A stretch of 64,000 nucleotides of DNA from Escherichia coli (GTDB lineage: Bacteria; Pseudomonadota; Gammaproteobacteria; Enterobacterales; Enterobacteriaceae), in assembly GCF_044324875.1 (NCBI RefSeq), contig NZ_CP172185.1. One strand, 5' to 3'. The translations under genes and the position numbers were made by a program. The first letter of the stretch is position 1. Each line of letters opens with the position of its first letter. Positions 1,431 through 43,231 of this stretch are shown in pieces. The notes below the pieces were generated by a model. That model did not search any database, was not told where the DNA came from, and worked only from the letters and a program-made list of their open reading frames with translations.

Positions 1431-3227
1431 TTATTTGAACATCTGTTGTGGACGGACTAACAGTGCACGATAGTGAGTCTGATTGGGTTTATCTGACAGC
1501 ACGTCGATTTCCACTTTCACTTCTTTGGTTTTGTAATCGATTTCGTTCAACTTACCGACGGTTGGCTGCCCGACATCGAACAAATGAATAGAACCACCGA
1601 AGCCAAACATGGTGTTACGGTCGGCTTGATATTCAATGATGGAGGTAATCGGGCTATAGAAATCGTAGCCACGTTCTTTACCGTATTCCCACACTTGCTG
1701 AACGGTGCCTTTCTTCTCATCAATCTTATATTCCACAAAGCGGGAGTATTTCATGGTTGGTAAGGCAGGTTGTTCCAGATGACGCCCATCGCCATTATCA
1801 AAAATGGTGAGCGTTCCTTTGCTGGAAATCCAGGCGGTATGCTGGGTGTAGGTAAAGTCGAAGTCTGAGTTTTCGCACAGGCCATTTTCGTTACAGGTAA
1901 TTGGCTTCCCGTTAGCATCAACCGGTTTCAGCAGCTTGCTGGCCAGCGGTTTTTCCCAACCTTTAGAGGGCGCAAGGATCCATTTCACTTGCTTATCACG
2001 ACCAATTTTCACAACACCCTGGTGGCGAGAGGAGAGGATGATTGAGTCATCTTTTGCGTCATAGGCGATTGAGTTAACGTGCGCCCAGTTACGACCTGGC
2101 CCTACACCCAGCGCGTCGCCGAACGGTGTATCTGGTTCCAGTTTTGCCTGTTGTCCTGCATGGGCAAGGTCAACGTTAACGCAAACTGCACCTGCATCCA
2201 GCGCGCCGAGCAGTGCATCGCGTTTCGGATCGAGGATCTTGGTCAGATCCCATACATCGACAACGCGACCAGATTTATCGACTTCGAGGATATGGTCACG
2301 AATGGTGGTGACGTGTACGCCGTCATCGCGACGGTAATTGCTCTTACCTACGCGCAACAATACTGTGCCATTAGGCGTCTCAATGGACTCATGAGTGGCG
2401 TCAGCAAATCCGCGCGGTAGTTTGTGATCTTCGAGCACCTGCCCCATCATGTCGAACTCGTACCAGTGCTGACCTTGTACAGCGGTAAAGGTGCCGCGTG
2501 GTGTTTCGCGGATACCCATCAGATAACCACGCTTGTTGATATCGCGGTCACGACCATCGTAGAAGGTGTTTTGATCCAACCACCAGCGGTATTCGCCTTC
2601 GGTATCGACGATAAAGGTGAATGGCGCGATATCAAAAGGGAGTGCGCCAGTTGCCGGACCCGCATCAAGGATACCGGCATTTTTATCTTTCTCACCATGC
2701 CAGTGGAGATCGGAACCTTGGGCGGTAAAGGTGTGGGTATTAACCAGATAGAGGCGATCTTCAAAACCCGGTGCGACTTTAATAACTTTGGTCTGTTGTA
2801 AATCGGAGATAGAGCGGTTATCCATGTAATTATTGACGATGGCCGAAGTGTGCACCACATAATCATCTTTCATGACCTTGCCGTTTTCTTTCCACTCAAC
2901 GGTCACTTTGTTAGCAAATTTCTGATAAAGACCAAAAATCGGTACACCATCATAAGTTTTTAGTGATTCCTGACCCACGGGATAGCTGATTTCTACGCCT
3001 TTTTCGCCCTTCCCATGGACGGTAACTTTGACATCAGAAATGACATGGCTATCTAAGTCAACCAAAGCGGTCAGTGGTGCATTGCCGTAGGGATCGACAA
3101 TGACCGCACCCAGTTGCCCGGCAGGTGGTGCGGGTTTAAAACCTGCTGCCATCACCCCCGGTGCTGACAAACCCAGAGTTATCGCCACAGCTCCGGCTAC
3201 CAGAGTTTTTCTATATTTATCAAACAT
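1431..3227 (-). CDS. assT: Periplasmic arylsulfate sulfotransferase AssT
   Basis: 598-aa ORF with signal peptide (MFDKYRKTLVAGAVAITLGLSAPGVMAAG); size and sequence fit the AssT family; first gene of an assT-dsbL-dsbI arrangement. Confidence 0.8.
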   Translation of the reverse strand: MFDKYRKTLVAGAVAITLGLSAPGVMAAGFKPAPPAGQLGAVIVDPYGNAPLTALVDLDSHVISDVKVTVHGKGEKGVEISYPVGQESLKTYDGVPIFGLYQKFANKVTVEWKENGKVMKDDYVVHTSAIVNNYMDNRSISDLQQTKVIKVAPGFEDRLYLVNTHTFTAQGSDLHWHGEKDKNAGILDAGPATGALPFDIAPFTFIVDTEGEYRWWLDQNTFYDGRDRDINKRGYLMGIRETPRGTFTAVQGQHWYEFDMMGQVLEDHKLPRGFADATHESIETPNGTVLLRVGKSNYRRDDGVHVTTIRDHILEVDKSGRVVDVWDLTKILDPKRDALLGALDAGAVCVNVDLAHAGQQAKLEPDTPFGDALGVGPGRNWAHVNSIAYDAKDDSIILSSRHQGVVKIGRDKQVKWILAPSKGWEKPLASKLLKPVDANGKPITCNENGLCENSDFDFTYTQHTAWISSKGTLTIFDNGDGRHLEQPALPTMKYSRFVEYKIDEKKGTVQQVWEYGKERGYDFYSPITSIIEYQADRNTMFGFGGSIHLFDVGQPTVGKLNEIDYKTKEVKVEIDVLSDKPNQTHYRALLVRPQQMFK

Positions 3228-3670
3228 GGATATATCTCCTTATATAACGCAAATATATAATAATGATGAATATCGACTGTTGAGGTGGTGCTAATAAATT
3301 TGTTTTGTGAATTAAAATGTATTAATAATAATCGTTATGAATATTTTTACTGGTTTTAGATTTTTTGTATTTCTCTGTAACAAATATTTTCTTTTGGTCG
3401 ATACTAGGTGGGCAATATATCAATAACAATATTCAATATTGTGTAGTGTGATCCCAGCGACATTGTTTTTTAATTATTAAATCTATTTTTGATGCGGTGT
3501 TTGATATAAATAAACTTATAAAACAATAGGTTACAAAGTGATTTTATTGATTAATTTAATTACAGTATCGCTTACATATGACGATTTAATATTAAATTAG
3601 GAATTAATGTTAAATAAAAGTGATGGATGTGATTGATTATATATAGATGGGGGTGATGATTTGCGAAGTA
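3228..3670. promoter_or_regulatory. AT-rich noncoding region upstream of assT (promoter region)
   Basis: About 440 bp with no convincing ORF, visibly far more AT-rich than flanking genes; directly upstream of the assT start. Confidence 0.4.
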
Positions 3671-11851: not shown

Positions 11852-13993
11852 TCAAAATTCCATTTTCACCGTGAATTGCACTTCACGCGGATCGCCAATC
11901 TGATTCCCCAGATTATTTGTGGCGATGGAAGAGGTGTAATACGTTTTATCAAACAGTTTTTTGACGTTTAATTGCAGTGTGACCGGATACTGCAATTTCA
12001 TTTTGTATGCGGCGAAGGCATCGGCAACGAAATAGCCTGGCAGATAATAGTCAGCCCCATTGGTTGCCGAACGACGGCTTACGCCATGTCCACCACCGCC
12101 AAACGTCAGTGTGTTATTGCCTGGCATGTTATGAATGTCATAGGTCAGGAATAGCGAACCGGTATGACGAGGAACATTCGGCAATGGTTTCCCTGCATAA
12201 TCAGGATCTTCCAGAACCTTAGCATCGGTATAGCCGTAGCTGGCAATGATATTAATGTTTTCAGTTAATGCTCCCGCAAGGTCGACTTCTACCCCTCTTG
12301 AACGAACGCGGCCTGCCGTTTTGGCGATGGTTTCATCACCAATACTTTCGGTATACAACACGTTACGTTTATGGATATCAAACAGCGCAATATCTGCGGT
12401 TATACCATCGAACAGCTCGAATTTTGCCCCGACTTCGTAAGCATTAGATGATTCCGGTGGAAGATCTCCGATGTAGCTGGCAATTGACGATTGCGGCATA
12501 AATGTTTGCGAATAATTAGCAAATAAGGATACCGATGGCGTCAGTTTGTAGACTAACCCCAGTTTGGGCGTCCATTGTTCATCGCGGCTGTCAGTATTGA
12601 CATTAAAAGGACGGCCTTTACCCGCATACTGCGTGTAATACTGATAGCGGATCCCGGCGACGGCAATCCAGTTATCGGTCAGATAGAGCGCGTCCTGTGC
12701 ATACGCTGAGTAGCTCTCCTGTTTGATCGTCTGATCGCTGTCCGACGCCGAGACAGTTGTGCATTTGCTGGTATTGCCGTAAACAGGGTTGTAGATATTG
12801 AAATCTTTAGCGTTTTTACAGCGAATCATATCTGTGCGCAGAAGATCATAATATTCATATGACACCCCACCCAGAATCTCATTATAGAACCCAGCAATAT
12901 CAACATTCCCTTGCAGATCCGCACGAGTAGCATGCATACGCTGGGTAGATCCCTGAGTTGCATCAACACGCCGTGTCAGCGTTCCTGTCGTTGCATCATA
13001 CGCGGTAACACGAGCCTGATTATCGCCGTATTTATCCTGGCTGTAGCTGTAATCAAAGCGCGCTGTCCACTGGCTATTGAGATGATATTCTGCGTTGAGT
13101 TGCGCCAGATCGGACTGACCATCTGTAATATTAAACGGTTCGTCAAAACGTATTTTTCGATCAACGTTTACGGGCTGTTTCGTCGTAAGGTCGAAAATCG
13201 TTCCACGATCGAACGGAGTTTTATAATCCCGATGGGAATAGAGCATGGTTACTGTTGCATTATCACCAAACCAGGTGAGTGATGGGGCAATAAATGTACT
13301 GCGCTCTTTACCAAAGTTTCGCCAGTAATCTTCATCCTGCACTTCCCCGGTAAGGCGATACGCCAGTTGAGTGCCTTCAATGGGGCCAGTGATATCAAGT
13401 TGCCCGGTGCCACCACCGAAACTGGAGGACGTGGCTGAGACAGAACCATGGAATGTTTTTTCCGGGCGTTTGGTCACGACGTTAATCAATCCACCAGGAT
13501 CGAGAATGCCATACAGCGTGGAGGCCGGGCCTTTTAGCACTTCCACACGTTCTGTGGCGGCGTTGAAACTGCGAGGAAGTACAGTTCGCAGGCCGTTGGT
13601 CATGATGGAGCCATCCCGGTTAGCACCAAACCCACGACGTACAAAGGCGTCCTGAGTTCCGCCTAATGTATTGGTCTGTACCACGTTACTGACGTTATAA
13701 AGCGCTTCATCCAGCGTCGTTGCATTCTGATTTTCCAGAACCTGATCGCTAACCGTATTGACCACCTGCGGGATATCCAGCATCGGCATATCGGTTAATG
13801 TCGCCGTGGAGGTGCTCAGAGGTTGATAACCATCGGTTGCTTCAGTTGCGGTATTTGCATCTGCTGTAACAGTGATTGTTTCGCCATCTTTGGTCGTTAC
13901 AGAGTCTGTTGCATGAATCATCGGTGCCGCAAAAAGCAGTGAAAAGAGCGCCCGACCTTTGAGTCCTGAGAATGAAGGTGTGAACATAGCCAT
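11852..13993 (-). CDS. TonB-dependent outer membrane siderophore-type receptor
   Basis: 713-aa ORF with signal peptide, TonB-box-like ETITVTA near the N-terminus, plug-domain motifs and a C-terminal aromatic residue (..TVKMEF). Resembles the fit system receptor (tentative). Confidence 0.85.
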   Translation of the reverse strand: MAMFTPSFSGLKGRALFSLLFAAPMIHATDSVTTKDGETITVTADANTATEATDGYQPLSTSTATLTDMPMLDIPQVVNTVSDQVLENQNATTLDEALYNVSNVVQTNTLGGTQDAFVRRGFGANRDGSIMTNGLRTVLPRSFNAATERVEVLKGPASTLYGILDPGGLINVVTKRPEKTFHGSVSATSSSFGGGTGQLDITGPIEGTQLAYRLTGEVQDEDYWRNFGKERSTFIAPSLTWFGDNATVTMLYSHRDYKTPFDRGTIFDLTTKQPVNVDRKIRFDEPFNITDGQSDLAQLNAEYHLNSQWTARFDYSYSQDKYGDNQARVTAYDATTGTLTRRVDATQGSTQRMHATRADLQGNVDIAGFYNEILGGVSYEYYDLLRTDMIRCKNAKDFNIYNPVYGNTSKCTTVSASDSDQTIKQESYSAYAQDALYLTDNWIAVAGIRYQYYTQYAGKGRPFNVNTDSRDEQWTPKLGLVYKLTPSVSLFANYSQTFMPQSSIASYIGDLPPESSNAYEVGAKFELFDGITADIALFDIHKRNVLYTESIGDETIAKTAGRVRSRGVEVDLAGALTENINIIASYGYTDAKVLEDPDYAGKPLPNVPRHTGSLFLTYDIHNMPGNNTLTFGGGGHGVSRRSATNGADYYLPGYFVADAFAAYKMKLQYPVTLQLNVKKLFDKTYYTSSIATNNLGNQIGDPREVQFTVKMEF

Positions 13994-14093
13994 TTAGTCT
14001 GTTATCCCAAAAACTCGCGGATTGTCGCGAGTGAAAATTGTTTCTTATTGCTCACTAAGCACTATCCGTTTGTTATTTCGCCATCGGATATGT

Positions 14094-14114
14094 AATTGAG
14101 AATCATTCAATCAT
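14094..14114. promoter_or_regulatory. Candidate Fur box in the divergent receptor/ABC promoter region
   Basis: aattgagaatcattcaatcat partially matches the Fur consensus GATAATGATAATCATTATC; lies in the AT-rich 13994-14366 intergenic region. Match judged by eye only. Confidence 0.3.
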
Positions 14115-14366
14115 GCGGTAATGTAGTAGTAAATGAGAAATAACAAAAAATTGCTACATGTGTTTTTATGAGAGGTTAATGCAATTCAATTGATGGTAAT
14201 TTATTAATATTTAATGATTTTATTTTTATCTTTAAAAAAATTTCACCTGTTATTTACCTTGTTTTTGTATGGCTTTTAACTTCTTGACTACTACATTTTG
14301 TGGCGTCAAACTCTCAAAGGAGAATGAGTTTTATTTTTGTTTGTCTTTGATTAAGTTGGCGTACAC

Positions 14367-15176
14367 GTGGCACATAACGCAAAAGGGCAGGGGCTGATCC
14401 TCGACAATGTTTCTGCCGGGTATCACAAGAAAATCATTGTTGATGGTGTTTCTTTCTCCGTTCCCACAGAAAAAATGACCGTTCTGGTTGGGGCAAACGG
14501 CTGTGGAAAGTCGACGTTGCTCAGCACCATTGCACGTATCTTGCAACCTATGGGCGGCTCGATATTGCTGGATGGTAAAGCGATTCACGAGCAACCAACG
14601 AAAGCGTTATCCCGTAGACTTGGGATCTTGCCGCAGTCGCCATTATTGCCGGAGGGCTTAACCGTTTATGAACTGGTGTCGCGTGGGCGTTTTCCCTGGC
14701 AGAATTTCATTCGTCAATGGAGCGACGCCGACGAGCAGGCGGTAGAAGAGGCCCTGAAATTAACCGGTACGCAGGAGTTTGCACATTTACCTGTTGAAAA
14801 ACTTTCTGGTGGGCAGCGCCAGCGTTGCTGGATTGCGATGGTGTTGGCGCAAAAGACGCCTTATATCCTACTGGATGAACCCACAACCTGGCTTGATTTA
14901 CGTTATCAGGTTGAAATTCTTGAGTTATTACATGATTTAACGCGTCATCACGGGCGTACAGTCGTCGTGGTGTTGCATGATCTGAATTTTGCCGTCAATT
15001 ATGGTGATACGTTGATATTTTTACGCCAGGGGAAAGTGGTGCGTGTGTTGAATGAGGGGGAGCATTGCACGCCTGAGCTGGTAAAAGCTGTCTTTGACGT
15101 TGATGTTCACGCATCAATAAATCCTCTGACGGGAAAGCCGTTCTTCATGCCGTTTCGTGGTGTAGAAAAAGTATGA
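14367..15176 (+). CDS. Iron-siderophore-type ABC transporter ATP-binding protein
   Basis: 269-aa ORF (GTG start) with Walker A GANGCGKST, signature LSGGQRQR and Walker B ILLDEPTTWLD. Confidence 0.9.
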   Translation: MAHNAKGQGLILDNVSAGYHKKIIVDGVSFSVPTEKMTVLVGANGCGKSTLLSTIARILQPMGGSILLDGKAIHEQPTKALSRRLGILPQSPLLPEGLTVYELVSRGRFPWQNFIRQWSDADEQAVEEALKLTGTQEFAHLPVEKLSGGQRQRCWIAMVLAQKTPYILLDEPTTWLDLRYQVEILELLHDLTRHHGRTVVVVLHDLNFAVNYGDTLIFLRQGKVVRVLNEGEHCTPELVKAVFDVDVHASINPLTGKPFFMPFRGVEKV

Positions 15177-16156
15177 TGCGCACAGGGCTGGTTACTGTAA
15201 TTTTCCTCGCCTTACTGCTGGTGGGATGCGTGGTATATCCAGGGATTGGTGCCCGATTTATTGCACCACAAACGGTGTTGCAGGCATTTCTTCATTTTGA
15301 TCCGCAAAACTTCGATCACAACGTAATTGTAAGACTCCGTTTGCCGCGTTTAGCGGCAGCATTGCTTACCGGTGCTTCTCTTGGAGTTGCTGGTGCTTTG
15401 TTGCAGGCTGTCATTCGTAACCCATTGGGGGAGCCACATATTTTAGGCTTAAATGCCGGAGCCGCTCTTGCTGTCGTTGCTGCCAGTGCGCTTGGGCTGG
15501 CCTTTCCGGTTGGACGCCCACTGCTGGCATCTACGGGCGGCGCGTTATTGTTCCTGTTGATATTGCTGCTTTCCTCCGCAGGGCGTTCAGGGTTAACGCC
15601 AATGAAAGTTACTTTATGCGGCGTGGCGCTATCGGCGTTCGTGTCCTCAATAACGGCTGCAATCCTGATTCTTGACGAACAAACACTGCTGGCGATGCGG
15701 ACATGGCTAGCAGGTGATTTAGCGGGGCAGGATTGGGCGACGCTGGGTACGTCCGCCTGGTTTTCTCTGGGGGGATTTGTGTTAGCCCTTTACCTTGCAC
15801 CCTCCCTTAACATGTTGGCACTGGGCGATCGCATGGCGCAGGGGCTGGGCGTCTCTGTACTCCGCACGCGAACATTCACCCTGCTTGCGATCGCGTTGCT
15901 CTGTGGCGCAGCCGTATCGATTGCTGGCCCCATTGGTTTTGTCGGCCTGCTAGTACCGCAGATTGTCCGGCGTCTGGTATCAGCGGATCTGCGCGTTCTG
16001 CTCCCTCTTTCAGCTTGTGTCGGCGCGCTTTTGTTATTACTGGCAGATATTATTGCCCGGACGCTTTTCACGCCCCATGAGTTAGCGACCGGTGTCATGA
16101 CGGCGTTAGTTGGTGCGCCTGTTTTTGTCATTATGGCGACGAGGATGTTCAAATGA
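15173..16156 (+). CDS. ABC transporter permease (FecCD family)
   Basis: 327-aa polytopic membrane ORF; start overlaps the ATPase stop by 4 nt. Confidence 0.85.
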   Translation: MMRTGLVTVIFLALLLVGCVVYPGIGARFIAPQTVLQAFLHFDPQNFDHNVIVRLRLPRLAAALLTGASLGVAGALLQAVIRNPLGEPHILGLNAGAALAVVAASALGLAFPVGRPLLASTGGALLFLLILLLSSAGRSGLTPMKVTLCGVALSAFVSSITAAILILDEQTLLAMRTWLAGDLAGQDWATLGTSAWFSLGGFVLALYLAPSLNMLALGDRMAQGLGVSVLRTRTFTLLAIALLCGAAVSIAGPIGFVGLLVPQIVRRLVSADLRVLLPLSACVGALLLLLADIIARTLFTPHELATGVMTALVGAPVFVIMATRMFK

Positions 16157-17202
16157 GTCGGATAATGAACGTCGGGCTACGCCCACTACGTGTTGGTAAG
16201 TTTTCGACACTGGTACGCCCTAAAAATCTGGTGTTGCTTGGTGGGTTGTTTCTGTTTGCGGTTGGAATACTGATATTCGGTCTGATGCAGGGTTCTTTCT
16301 CCGTCCCGGCATCGGAAGTAGGACGAGCATTGTTCTCTCCAGAAAACGTAAGCACAGACGCACGTTATATTGTGCAGGATATTCGCTTGCCGAGAGTCAT
16401 CATGGCATTGCTATGCGGGGCCATGTTAGGTATGGCGGGGGCCGCGATGCAATCCATTGCGCGTAACGGCCTTGCCGATCCTGGTTTAATCGGCGTCAAA
16501 GAAGGATGTAGCGTGGCGGTGCTGTGGCTGATTTTCCAGTTTCCAATGCTGGGAATGTTCTGGCGTCCAGTGGCTGGTCTTGCTGGTGGCTTGTTGGTGG
16601 CTTTAATCGTGATTTTTTGTGCGCGCGATATTTCCCGCCCGCGATTTGTTCTGATTGGTATTGGTGTTTCCTGGTTTTTCGCCGCCGGTATCGGTGTATT
16701 TATGACCACTGCAGATGTTCGAGATGTACAAACTGCATTGATGTGGTTATCGGGAAGCCTGCATGCAGCTAACTGGATGTTAGTCGGTATTTCAGCCTGT
16801 TGGATGTTGCCAGCCGCTCTTTTATTGCTGTTCACCGCCAGGGCGGCGGATATCGCTCTGCTTGGTCATCAGGTTGCAACCGGGTTAGGGGTGAATAGTT
16901 CTCGTCTGGCGTTGTTACGTGTCGCCGCACCCATAATCCTGACAGCCGTCTGCGTTTCGTGTGTTGGTAACATCGGTTTTGTCGGATTGATAGCACCCCA
17001 TATATCACGTTTTATTCTACGTGGCGGGCAGACGACATTACTGCTGGGGAGCGCCGTATCGGGGGCGTTGTTAGTCATCCTGGCGGATAGCATTGGTCGT
17101 TTGGCTTTTTTGCCTTTGCAACTGCCTGCCGGAATCATTATTTCATTGATTGGTGGACCATTCTTTTTGCTACTGCTCTGGCAGCGCAGGAACAGTTTTT
17201 AA
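16153..17202 (+). CDS. ABC transporter permease (FecCD family), second subunit
   Basis: 349-aa polytopic membrane ORF overlapping the previous permease stop by 4 nt; paralogous to it. Confidence 0.85.
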   Translation: MSRIMNVGLRPLRVGKFSTLVRPKNLVLLGGLFLFAVGILIFGLMQGSFSVPASEVGRALFSPENVSTDARYIVQDIRLPRVIMALLCGAMLGMAGAAMQSIARNGLADPGLIGVKEGCSVAVLWLIFQFPMLGMFWRPVAGLAGGLLVALIVIFCARDISRPRFVLIGIGVSWFFAAGIGVFMTTADVRDVQTALMWLSGSLHAANWMLVGISACWMLPAALLLLFTARAADIALLGHQVATGLGVNSSRLALLRVAAPIILTAVCVSCVGNIGFVGLIAPHISRFILRGGQTTLLLGSAVSGALLVILADSIGRLAFLPLQLPAGIIISLIGGPFFLLLLWQRRNSF

Positions 17203-17212
17203 TGGGAGTTAT

Positions 17213-18160
17213 ATGCGTTTATTTTTTTCTCTGCTGATACTGTTGTCATTCTTTGCCCGCGCGACAGAACCTGTTCAGGTCTTTACTGATGATTTAGGGC
17301 GCAAAGTCACTGTTCCTGCTCATCCAAAGAGAATTGTCTCTTTACACGATCTTGATATCACTATTCCTCTGATTGAGCTCGGTGTACCTCCTGTCGCCAG
17401 CCACGGGCGAACCCGGCCTGACGGTAGCCATTTCATTCGATCAGGCGCGTTATTGACAGGTGTCGACTTTGATAATTCATCGATCGCTTTTATTGGCACC
17501 GCTGATATTGATATTGAAGCGATTGTGGCGGCAAAACCTGACCTGATCATCACAGAACCGACCCGTAATACGCCCATTGAACAACTGGAAAAAATTGCGC
17601 CCACGGTGAGCATTGATCATCTCAAAGGAGGCGCGCCAGAAATCTACCGCAAGCTGGCAGAACTTACAGGAACGCAGTCGCAGCTGGCGATACTTGAACG
17701 CCGCTATCAGGCACAAATCAATGCGCTGAAGGCGACGCTGGACAGCCAAAAAATAACGGTATCGGTGATTCAGGCAAATCAGGGAAAAATTAATGTGATG
17801 CATAGCTATCATTCGCTGGGGCGGGTATTACGCGATGCTGGTTTTCGCTTTCCGCCGCTGATTGAGAGCATTCCTGAAGGTGGGCGAATGGATGTGAGCG
17901 CAGAGCGTTTACCTGAACTGGATGCCGATTTTGTTTTTGCAACCTGGCGCGGTGACACCGGTGGTAAACCTCAGGATGAGCTGGCAGCAATGGAAAAAGT
18001 CATGCCGGGATGGTGTCAGTTTCTGACGGCCTGTCGTTCCGGGCGCTATGTGCTGATTTCTCGTGAAGAGGCGATTTCTAACTCCTTTGCATCTCTGGGG
18101 CTGATGGCTGCGCAGATACAATCACAAATTGCGGGACGACCTCTACCGGAGGCTAAATGA
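17213..18160 (+). CDS. Periplasmic substrate-binding protein (siderophore/cobalamin-type)
   Basis: ORF 17150..18160 trimmed to MRLFFSLLILLSFFARA, which has a signal peptide and an upstream gggag RBS; class III binding-protein-like sequence. Confidence 0.8.
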   Translation: MRLFFSLLILLSFFARATEPVQVFTDDLGRKVTVPAHPKRIVSLHDLDITIPLIELGVPPVASHGRTRPDGSHFIRSGALLTGVDFDNSSIAFIGTADIDIEAIVAAKPDLIITEPTRNTPIEQLEKIAPTVSIDHLKGGAPEIYRKLAELTGTQSQLAILERRYQAQINALKATLDSQKITVSVIQANQGKINVMHSYHSLGRVLRDAGFRFPPLIESIPEGGRMDVSAERLPELDADFVFATWRGDTGGKPQDELAAMEKVMPGWCQFLTACRSGRYVLISREEAISNSFASLGLMAAQIQSQIAGRPLPEAK

Positions 18161-19044
18161 TCCAGAAAGACAAAACGCGGGTTGATATTTATGGTGAGCG
18201 TTTTCGCACTCGCGCGAGTCAGTTAACGCCTGGGTTAAGAACTGTCGCAAGCTACATTAATGAGCATCGTGAAGTGGTACTCGAGCAAACGGCGATGGAA
18301 ATTGCGGCCACGTTGAACACTTCCGATGCCACAGTTATCAGGGCTATACAGGCTCTGGGGTTTGCCGGGCTGCGTGATCTGAAACGCACTCTGGAACAGT
18401 GGCTTGGTCCAGCCCTTAGTTCCAGCGAAAAGATGTCTACGACGGTGAGTAACTTGACGAGCGATGTTAACACCGCAATCGACTTTGTTCTTGAAGGGCA
18501 TTTGTATACTTGTAATGTCCTGTCAGAGCCTGAAAACCGCCACGCGCTTGCGCAAGCTGTAGCGTTGTTGGTGCAGGCACGGCAAGTCGCTATTTTTGGC
18601 ATTGGCGCTTCGGGTATCCTGGCGGACTATACCGCACGACTATTCAACCGCATAGGTTTGCCTGCCACGGCACTAAACCGTACGGGTATTGGCCTTGCCG
18701 AGCAACTGATCGCGCTTCAACGTGGCGATGTTCTGATCATGATGGCGCAAAAATCTGCGCACCGGGAAGGGCTGACAACGCTTCGTGAGGCGAGGCGGCT
18801 GGGGATCCCTGTTATTTTGCTGACAAACGCGCTGGATTCACGTTTTAGCAAAGACGCCAGTATCGTGATTCATGTTCCGCGCGGGGATGAAAAGGGGAAA
18901 ACGCCACTACATGGTACGGTATTGTTGTGCCTGGAAATGATTGTTTGGTCGGTGGCTTCCGCGATGCCGCAGCGTGCGGTTAAAACCATTAAGCGAATTA
19001 ACGATTTCCATCGGGGTTTGAAAACGGGAAGAAAGAATGGCTAA
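18157..19044 (+). CDS. RpiR/MurR-family transcriptional regulator (HTH plus SIS domain)
   Basis: 295-aa ORF overlapping the binding-protein stop by 4 nt; N-terminal helix-turn-helix region and C-terminal SIS-like Rossmann segment (VAIFGIGASGILADY). Confidence 0.75.
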   Translation: MIQKDKTRVDIYGERFRTRASQLTPGLRTVASYINEHREVVLEQTAMEIAATLNTSDATVIRAIQALGFAGLRDLKRTLEQWLGPALSSSEKMSTTVSNLTSDVNTAIDFVLEGHLYTCNVLSEPENRHALAQAVALLVQARQVAIFGIGASGILADYTARLFNRIGLPATALNRTGIGLAEQLIALQRGDVLIMMAQKSAHREGLTTLREARRLGIPVILLTNALDSRFSKDASIVIHVPRGDEKGKTPLHGTVLLCLEMIVWSVASAMPQRAVKTIKRINDFHRGLKTGRKNG

Positions 19045-37654: not shown

Positions 37655-37710
37655 GCAAATAGTAATGAGAACGACTATCAATTCGACGTCGTTTTGATAT
37701 TATTATGCGC
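37655..37710 (+). promoter_or_regulatory. Fur-box-like AT-rich region upstream of exbB
   Basis: caaatagtaatgagaacgactatcaattc and ttttgatattattatgc show partial matches to the Fur consensus; exbB is iron-regulated in E. coli. Confidence 0.3.
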
Positions 37711-37742: not shown

Positions 37743-38477
37743 GTGGGTAATAATTTAATGCAGACGGACCTTTCCGTCTGGGGTATGTATCAGCACGCCG
37801 ATATTGTCGTTAAGTGCGTGATGATTGGGCTTATTTTGGCCTCCGTAGTCACCTGGGCAATCTTCTTCAGTAAGAGCGTAGAGTTCTTCACTCAGAAGCG
37901 TCGCCTTAAGCGCGAGCAGCAACTGCTGGCTGAAGCGCGTTCCTTAAACCAGGCCAACGATATCGCCGCTGATTTTGGTAGCAAAAGCTTAAGCCTGCAT
38001 TTGCTCAATGAAGCGCAGAATGAGCTGGAACTGTCAGAAGGCAGCGACGATAACGAAGGTATTAAAGAACGTACCAGCTTCCGTCTGGAGCGTCGGGTCG
38101 CCGCAGTAGGTCGTCAAATGGGCCGCGGTAACGGTTATCTGGCAACCATCGGCGCGATTTCGCCGTTCGTTGGTCTGTTTGGTACGGTCTGGGGCATCAT
38201 GAACAGCTTTATTGGTATCGCGCAAACGCAGACCACTAACCTGGCAGTCGTTGCGCCGGGTATTGCAGAAGCTCTGTTAGCAACGGCAATCGGCCTCGTG
38301 GCAGCGATTCCGGCGGTCGTTATCTATAACGTATTTGCACGTCAGATTGGCGGCTTTAAAGCGATGCTGGGTGATGTCGCAGCGCAGGTATTGTTGCTGC
38401 AAAGCCGTGACCTGGATCTGGAAGCCAGCGCCGCTGCGCATCCGGTTCGTGTCGCACAAAAATTACGCGCAGGATAA
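37743..38477 (+). CDS. exbB: TonB-system proton channel ExbB
   Basis: 244-aa ORF (GTG start) matching ExbB from recall. Confidence 0.95.
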   Translation: MGNNLMQTDLSVWGMYQHADIVVKCVMIGLILASVVTWAIFFSKSVEFFTQKRRLKREQQLLAEARSLNQANDIAADFGSKSLSLHLLNEAQNELELSEGSDDNEGIKERTSFRLERRVAAVGRQMGRGNGYLATIGAISPFVGLFGTVWGIMNSFIGIAQTQTTNLAVVAPGIAEALLATAIGLVAAIPAVVIYNVFARQIGGFKAMLGDVAAQVLLLQSRDLDLEASAAAHPVRVAQKLRAG

Positions 38478-43043: not shown

Positions 43044-43231
43044 TCAAACATACGTATTATCTTGCTTTAATTAATTACACTAATGCTTCTTCCCTTCGTT
43101 TTAGCGCCCCGCCGCAGTATCATGATATCGATAACCATAATAAATGTGTGGTAAATGGCGCATCGATCGCATTATTGATTTTGCGATTGAGGCAAAATAT
43201 ATGCCAGGTCTTCGCAACGGAATAACTATAA

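Follow-up and report, generated by a model that had tools for sequence, protein, structure and literature searches.

Positions 13994-14366 of the window, which is the whole 64-kb stretch of Escherichia coli DNA analysed here, form a 373-bp gap bounded by the start codon of fitA (13993, minus strand) and by the GTG with which fitB, the ATPase gene, begins (14367). The gap and the genes around it are as follows.

11852-13993, minus strand: fitA, a TonB-dependent siderophore receptor of 713 aa (TIGR01783, E=2e-108; named fitA in the Sakai RefSeq annotation)
13994-14366: the whole fitA/fitB intergenic region, a bidirectional fit control region (delimited by ORFs, the RefSeq annotation of a 99.9% identical genome and the Sakai annotation)
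14367-19044, plus strand: fitB (ATPase), fitC and fitD (FecCD-type permeases), fitE (periplasmic binding protein) and fitR (NCBIfam matches and RefSeq annotations; roles according to PMC2593036)
18157-19044, plus strand: fitR, an RpiR/MurR-type repressor gene (Pfam HTH_6 and SIS on FitR homologues)

NCBIfam matches of all six ORFs reveal the six-gene fit layout, i.e., a receptor gene divergent from the genes for an ATPase, two permeases, a binding protein and an RpiR-type regulator. The Sakai RefSeq annotation names five of these genes (fitA, fitC, fitD, fitE and fitR) and labels the ATPase gene fepC_2. The island is ~7.2 kb long (11852-19044) and occupies the space between parE and ygiN; in K-12 the ygiN-parE distance is only 47 bp and no island is present, indicating that fit is an accessory island. 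The set and order of the genes and the position between parE and ygiN identify this locus as the fit island for iron uptake described by Ouyang and Isaacson. Of 5426 complete E. coli genomes, 1870 contain the 1-kb segment 13700-14700, which includes the gap, at 95-100% identity; the matching places number 1873 in all, with one on a plasmid and one genome having two copies. The GC content of the gap is 30.6% and goes down to 24% at 14100-14299, compared with ~50% in the flanking genes, in agreement with an earlier note on this DNA that described a strongly AT-rich intergenic region of ~370 bp.

The fit promoter was reportedly first described by Ouyang and Isaacson in Infect Immun in 2006. The gap is a bidirectional promoter which is repressed independently by Fur and FitR (Ouyang and Isaacson, 2008; PMC2593036). 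When cloned in either orientation, it drives lacZ both ways; the fitB-direction fusion is elevated ~3-fold upon iron deprivation (168 to 525 units) and a similar iron response was reported for the fitA direction, and in a fur mutant fitA is increased 23-fold (PMC2593036). Purified FitR shifts a 347-bp fragment in EMSA and represses both directions equally (PMC2593036). In these data the effects of Fur and FitR roughly multiply, as separate sites would predict, and the authors noted in 2008 that the precise location of the Fur and FitR sites was still to be found (PMC2593036). In K. pneumoniae, fitA is iron-induced (PMC5907654).

ChIP-exo data on Fur binding cover nine strains, with fit present in three (Gao et al., 2023; PMC10164565). 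Under iron-replete conditions, Fur peaks are assigned to both fit transcription units in CFT073 (3607758-70 and 3607968-80), 042 (3539587-99, 3539695-707 and 3539800-12) and Sakai (3917060-72 and 3917271-83) (PMC10164565 and its supplement). Deletion of fur causes log2 changes of +8.1 (042), +3.5 (Sakai) and +3.9 (CFT073) for fitA, and of +5.9 (042), +1.8 (Sakai) and +3.3 (CFT073) for fitB (PMC10164565 supplement). Published experiments have demonstrated bidirectional activity, control by iron and Fur, binding of FitR to the fragment and in vivo occupancy by Fur at two places. The proposal in the earlier note of iron-responsive divergent promoters is borne out by the lacZ activity in both directions and the responses to iron and fur in these studies (PMC2593036, PMC10164565).

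When mapped onto the window, the ChIP-exo peaks of all three strains fall at 14103-14115 and 14313-14328, corresponding to the sites termed box A and box B below. The three strains and the window have collinear gaps of 373 bp, so that this mapping is exact for CFT073 and 042; for Sakai, a +128 shift between genome versions was deduced from the yqjH Fur-site anchor and from the agreement with the other two strains. The peak centres lie 7-10 bp off the centres of the matrix sites of boxes A and B, and hand calculation for the known fepA, entS, fepB and entC sites (W3110 peaks against K-12 matrix positions) gives a like offset of 6-11 bp. The ChIP-exo windows, which are 13 bp long and offset from the boxes, do not distinguish direct Fur binding from spreading. 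There is also an intragenic Fur peak in fitA (window 12499-12511, ~+1483), located at 3609572-84 in CFT073, 3541405-17 in 042 and 3918876-88 (v1) in Sakai (PMC10164565); the nearest matrix match to it in Sakai has only 6.8 bits (window equivalent 12508-12526).

A 19-bp match to the Fur consensus with three or fewer mismatches is found nowhere in the 64-kb window, and a matrix was therefore needed. The Fur matrix is symmetric, 19 bp long, has an information content of 15.7 bits and the consensus GATAATGATAATCATTATC, and was built from 18 footprinted and gel-shifted K-12 sites in 17 promoter regions (Chen et al., 2007; PMC2189734). Leave-one-out scores of these training sites range from 6.5 to 21.7 bits with a median of 17.4, and their matches to the consensus from 11 to 17 of 19; the proven weak Fur boxes of exbB, tonB and fhuE score 6.5-10.5 bits by leave-one-out. 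The window itself includes the exbB Fur box (37661-37679, 64-82 nt upstream of exbB at 37743), whose 11.6 bits provide an internal positive control. Elsewhere in the window, an AT-rich gap of 483 bp, upstream of a gene for an aryl-sulfate sulfotransferase (1431-3227, minus strand), contains four Fur-like matches (12-14 bits) at 3256-3490, and matches of 13.6 and 8.1 bits lie at 43124-43148, ~90-110 nt upstream of hybO (43232). The hyb operon also has a listed peak in the Sakai ChIP-exo table (PMC10164565).

In the fit gap, the scan yields two main sites.

14092-14110: Fur box A, GTAATTGAGAATCATTCAA, 10.6 bits, 12/19 matches to the consensus, rank 10 in 64 kb
14320-14338: Fur box B, GAGAATGAGTTTTATTTTT, 16.8 bits, 13/19 matches to the consensus, rank 1 in 64 kb

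Both boxes score within the range of experimentally proven Fur sites (6.5-21.7 bits by leave-one-out). In dinucleotide shuffles of the gap, 16.8 bits is reached at P=0.005 and 10.6 bits in 18% of cases, and both sites occur together at P=0.0008; the region as a whole is thus beyond chance, and box A taken by itself does not exceed what AT-rich DNA gives by chance (P=0.18). The partial Fur-box string given in the earlier note, aattgagaatcattcaatcat, is present at 14094-14114, with its best register being that of box A, under the ChIP-exo peaks; its description as weaker than a canonical site is accurate, as the window contains no site with three or fewer mismatches to the consensus. Of the second candidate of that note, at 14200-14230, the match itself exists (14210-14228, 7.5 bits, rank 27), and its role is doubtful because it is weak and not conserved and because two substitutions destroy the matrix match in 042, the one strain in which an extra peak maps there (14208-14220). 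The strongest box (14320-14338) and the second, locus-specific repressor acting at the gap, FitR, had not been listed. The check proposed at that time, matrix scanning together with iron regulation, is positive on both counts, with the scan performed here and the regulation taken from published data.

Conservation of the gap was analysed at two evolutionary distances. Scanning one genome per species with FitA yielded 21 loci, which share the gene order of the window, have 82-99% identity at the protein level and belong to Escherichia, Enterobacter, Lelliottia, Silvania and Huaxiibacter; together with the window they make up 22 closer sequences. A FitR search added five distant loci, in Kosakonia, Sodalis, Erwinia, Raoultella and Serratia (FitR identity 69-78%), which brings the total to 27 loci. 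Among the 22 closer sequences, 35 of 45 columns are invariant in block A (14091-14135) and 33 of 60 in block B (14283-14342), compared with 7 of 123 in the centre (14160-14282); the first 45 bases of the fitB coding region have just 3 invariant columns. The layout of the five distant loci is the same as that of the closer loci. The centre can be described as follows.

14160-14282: non-conserved AT-rich spacer with weak Fur-like matches at 14175-14193 (8.4 bits) and 14210-14228 (7.5 bits)

Fur-like matches in this spacer come and go between species, and substitutions among E. coli fall mostly within it. A palindrome of the form CCCTGG-N5-6-CAGGG is located ~10-25 nt upstream of the fitB -35 in the Enterobacter group and is degenerate in E. 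coli (equivalent to window 14257-14275).

The box A 19-mer is identical in 26 of the 27 loci, the exception being Huaxiibacter, where a 1-nt deletion results in a score of 13.2 bits. Box B keeps its place in every one of the 27 loci, with 10.8-18.8 bits (13-18.8 bits in the 22 closer loci); in the five distant genera, box A is identical and box B has 10.8-16.8 bits. These scores, ranks and degrees of conservation are direct observations. The identity extends to a 21-mer, ATGTAATTGAGAATCATTCAA (14090-14110), which is shared by 26 of 27 loci in about ten genera and is conserved far above the adjacent coding sequence. As this exceeds what a Fur box alone should need, the 21-mer is likely to be under overlapping constraints by the -10, the start site, Fur and perhaps FitR. 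A mini-ORF over box B (ATG at 14324, MSFIFVCL; 6-8 codons in other genera) was rejected as coding because it is not maintained in Enterobacter, the changes are non-synonymous (AGT/AGA, TTT/GTT, GTT/ATT), just 1 nt separates the SD-like AGGAG from the ATG, and a function at the DNA level explains the conservation.

The conserved blocks include two predicted promoter cores.

14105-14133, minus strand: predicted fitA core, with -35 TTTACT (14133 to 14128), 17-nt spacer, TG at 14113-14112 and -10 TTGAAT (14110 to 14105), read from the sequence
14284-14312, plus strand: predicted fitB core, with -35 TTGACT (14284-14289), 17-nt spacer and -10 CAAACT (14307-14312)

The hexamers, the TG and the 17-nt spacing of the fitA core are identical in 27 of 27 loci, and transcription of fitA would start near 14096-14098. 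For fitB, TTGACT is likewise invariant in all 27, and is always followed at exactly 17 nt by a hexamer whose second base is A and whose sixth is T, namely CAAACT in E. coli and Enterobacter and CAATAT, CATGAT or TAAGAT elsewhere; its predicted start is near 14319-14321. CAAACT matches the -10 consensus at just 3 of 6 positions, and a simple sigma-70 scan missed the fitB promoter for this reason. A minus-strand promoter proposed by that scan (14246 to 14217) lies in the non-conserved centre, is altered in CFT073 and was not adopted.

Boxes A and B, which are 228 bp apart, overlap the conserved -10/start regions of these predicted promoters, one box per promoter. Box A overlaps the -10 and the start of the predicted fitA promoter, with its edge at the first base of that -10. 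Box B is 29-47 nt upstream of the fitB GTG and begins 7 nt past the predicted fitB -10, covering ~+1 to +19; across the 27 loci it begins 5-7 nt past the -10. This arrangement suggests that the fitA and fitB promoters stand back to back, ~190 bp apart, each with a Fur box in a repressing position.

Each predicted -35 is in turn overlapped by a conserved element in mirror orientation.

14122-14133, plus strand: candidate FitR operator 1, TGTAGTAGTAAA, overlapping the fitA -35
14284-14295, minus strand: candidate FitR operator 2, TGTAGTAGTCAA (plus strand TTGACTACTACA), overlapping the fitB -35

An inverted repeat with 13 of 14 matches, AATGTAGTAGTAAA (14120-14133) and TTGACTACTACATT (14284-14297), puts the motif TGTAGTAGT(A/C)AA over each -35; the candidate operator stretch, ACTACTACA, reaches outside the -35 hexamer. 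The 9-mer TGTAGTAGT occurs at only two places in the 64 kb, with 0.15 expected. It is present exactly twice in each of the 22 closer loci and is also present in the five distant genera, accompanying fitR in 27 of 27 loci. Three classes of spacing between the copies are seen: 21 loci have 164-166 bp, Raoultella has 178 bp and another five loci have 187-188 bp. That such classes exist although the intervening DNA is unconstrained is a hint of helical phasing or of looping. Throughout the E. coli/Enterobacter group, operator 1 is accompanied at a distance of 32 nt by a third CTACA half-site; this half-site is absent in Sodalis, Raoultella and Serratia and was not included in the core.

Taken together, the gap is best explained, with a probability of roughly 0.85, as the shared control region of divergent sigma-70 promoters for fitA and for fitBCDE-fitR, each with its own Fur box, on which FitR acts in addition. 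The left promoter would drive fitA and the right promoter fitBCDE-fitR. When iron is plentiful, Fe2+-Fur would occupy boxes A and B and block RNA polymerase; when iron is scarce, Fur would leave and both the fitA and fitB transcripts would rise. FitR, encoded at the end of the operon, would act independently, most likely at the TGTAGTAGT elements over the -35 hexamers. The exact hexamers, the transcription starts and the FitR operator in this scheme are predictions from sequence. Separate sets of Fur and FitR operators would explain the multiplicative effect of the two repressors.

The assignment of the TGTAGTAGT pair as the FitR operator is likely. Binding of FitR, an HTH_6 and SIS domain protein, has been demonstrated solely for the whole 347-bp fragment (PMC2593036), and the two elements could instead be extended promoter elements or be bound by a different conserved factor, in which case FitR would bind another part of the fragment. 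This is a possible, though less probable, explanation, in line with which the -35 hexamer takes in the first three bases of each copy and the element forms no clear palindrome in our own reading of the sequence (5/7 and 3/7 self-complementary pairs). However, nine to twelve invariant bases run past the -35 well into the spacer. Sigma-70 makes no base contacts in the promoter spacer. The motif is also found nowhere else in the window and its copies accompany fitR without exception, and the presence of two mirror copies, one per promoter, matches the equal repression of both directions by FitR (PMC2593036).

The role of box A within the two-box arrangement can also be questioned. It is fairly improbable that box B is the one primary Fur site, with the signal at box A resulting from spreading or looping and box A being conserved as the -10, extended -10 or start of fitA or as a FitR site. 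Its score is modest and is reached in nearly a fifth of the shuffles, it overlaps the predicted TTGAAT, and the near-complete identity of ATGTAATTGAGAATCATTCAA exceeds the need of a degenerate Fur motif. Also, TGTAAT-N8-ATTCAA at box A presumably resembles the TGTAAT...ATTACA palindromes of HexR, an RpiR-family protein. These features are opposed by a separate ChIP-exo peak ~210 bp from that of box B, at the same position in all three strains, by the scores of the known exbB, tonB and fhuE boxes, which are no better than that of box A, and by the stronger derepression of fitA than of fitB in fur mutants (PMC10164565 supplement). An origin of the Fur-like matches as a mere by-product of AT-richness in a horizontally acquired island, with the low GC content (24-31%) due to promoter function or H-NS-type silencing, would accommodate the several 7-19-bit matches that come and go in the non-conserved centre and the lack of window sites within three mismatches of the consensus, but is highly improbable given that box B is the top match in 64 kb, that boxes A and B are fixed in position and sequence over about ten genera while the AT-rich centre drifts, and that Fur occupancy and fur-dependent expression are published (PMC2593036, PMC10164565).

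Downstream of the predicted fitA start, the leader contains three further features.

14064-14089, minus strand: hairpin 1, with arms 14085-14089 and 14064-14068 (RNAalifold; three pairs with compensatory double changes)
14009-14031, minus strand: hairpin 2, with arms 14026-14031 and 14014-14019 and the loop ACAAUC, followed by UUUUU (14013 to 14009)
14047-14055, minus strand: GUGAGCAAU, a complement of the RyhB seed (AUUGCUCAC) in the unpaired linker between the hairpins

For hairpin 1, 92.6% of cells are paired, compared with 18-40% when the partner is slid, and the covariation score is 0.41, compared with 0.24 in shuffles, none of 500 of which reach 0.41. Hairpin 2 is present at the same position in 22 of 22 orthologues with 22 different sequences; a compensatory change is seen even within E. 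coli (14017 G>A with 14028 C>T), and its G-U pairs appear on the minus-strand reading only. RNAalifold missed this hairpin because MAFFT misaligned it, and it was analysed per sequence instead. In E. coli it is terminator-like, with a stem of 6-7 bp and U5 ~15 nt before the start codon; a simple terminator scan did not list it. The tail after the stem is UAUUU(C/U) in Enterobacter, and in Erwinia there is no adjacent U-tract, so that attenuation is doubtful as a general role. At the gathering threshold, no Rfam 15 family matches within 13800-14600, where two sub-threshold chance hits only are seen.

Unrestricted folding of RyhB with the leader results in meaningless full-length duplexes and was replaced by seed and linker tests. 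GUGAGCAAU and the RyhB seed form a perfect 9-nt match (shuffle P=0.034), and the linker duplex tests are mixed; orthologues keep GGGCAAUG(A) or GGGCAAUGA in the linker, pairing with CAUUGCU(U/C). GUGAGCAAU as a RyhB site is thus a weak lead. The EHEC RNase E-CLASH tables, in the part available, include ECs3917 hybrids in the coding region only and no RyhB-leader chimera. Esr41, an iron-related EHEC sRNA considered as a possible product of the gap, is located on SpLE1 next to iha.

A more elaborate arrangement can be considered tentatively, and is on balance unlikely to hold in full. FitR might bind the mirror TGTAGTAGT operators, whose spacing classes differ by about one and two helical turns, as would suit a repression loop formed by an oligomeric SIS-domain protein, and the ~100-nt fitA leader might be a conserved cis-regulatory RNA with two covarying hairpins around GGGCAAUGA. 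If so, iron limitation would act twice, through release of Fur at the promoter and through RyhB pairing on the leader.

As all but the base-level assignment has been published, Fur control of the fit promoter is already known. What is added is the base-level map that the 2008 authors called missing, with two Fur boxes, two promoter cores and a candidate FitR operator. For adherent-invasive and extraintestinal E. coli, fitA has been put forward as a marker. Understanding the wiring of an RpiR-type, sugar-phosphate-sensing regulator into an iron promoter could assist the search for the ligand responsible for induction.

The region is the same as the fit promoter of Ouyang and Isaacson and of Gao et al. 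in its genes, chromosomal site and intergenic fragment, and nothing differs in kind. Like the enterobactin promoters fepA-fes, fepD-entS and fepB-entC, it is an AT-rich gap between divergent iron-uptake genes with Fur boxes over the promoter cores, which in fit are predicted ones. The footprinted enterobactin sites also have similar scores, 13-20 bits in-model and 11.5-19.6 bits by leave-one-out (Chen et al., 2007; PMC2189734). Unlike these promoters, fit has two boxes 228 bp apart and a second repressor encoded in the locus (PMC2593036). The fecIR-fecABCDE system similarly combines global Fur control with a regulator encoded in the locus; fec depends on an ECF sigma/anti-sigma activation cascade, whereas fit has an RpiR/MurR-type (HTH_6 and SIS) auto-repressor. 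The fitA leader resembles the cirA leader in being a siderophore-receptor mRNA leader complementary to the RyhB seed, which for fitA is a matter of complementarity alone. RyhB reportedly acts on the cirA 5' leader, as described by Salvail et al. in 2013. This action is also mentioned elsewhere (PMC5286369). FitR itself is similar to MurR, HexR and AlsR in its HTH_6 and SIS domains, and acts at a divergent intergenic region to repress the operon that encodes it. It differs from the family in that a SIS (phosphosugar-binding) regulator is unusual in a siderophore-uptake locus and in that its candidate operator, TGTAGTAGT(A/C)AA, is no clean palindrome.
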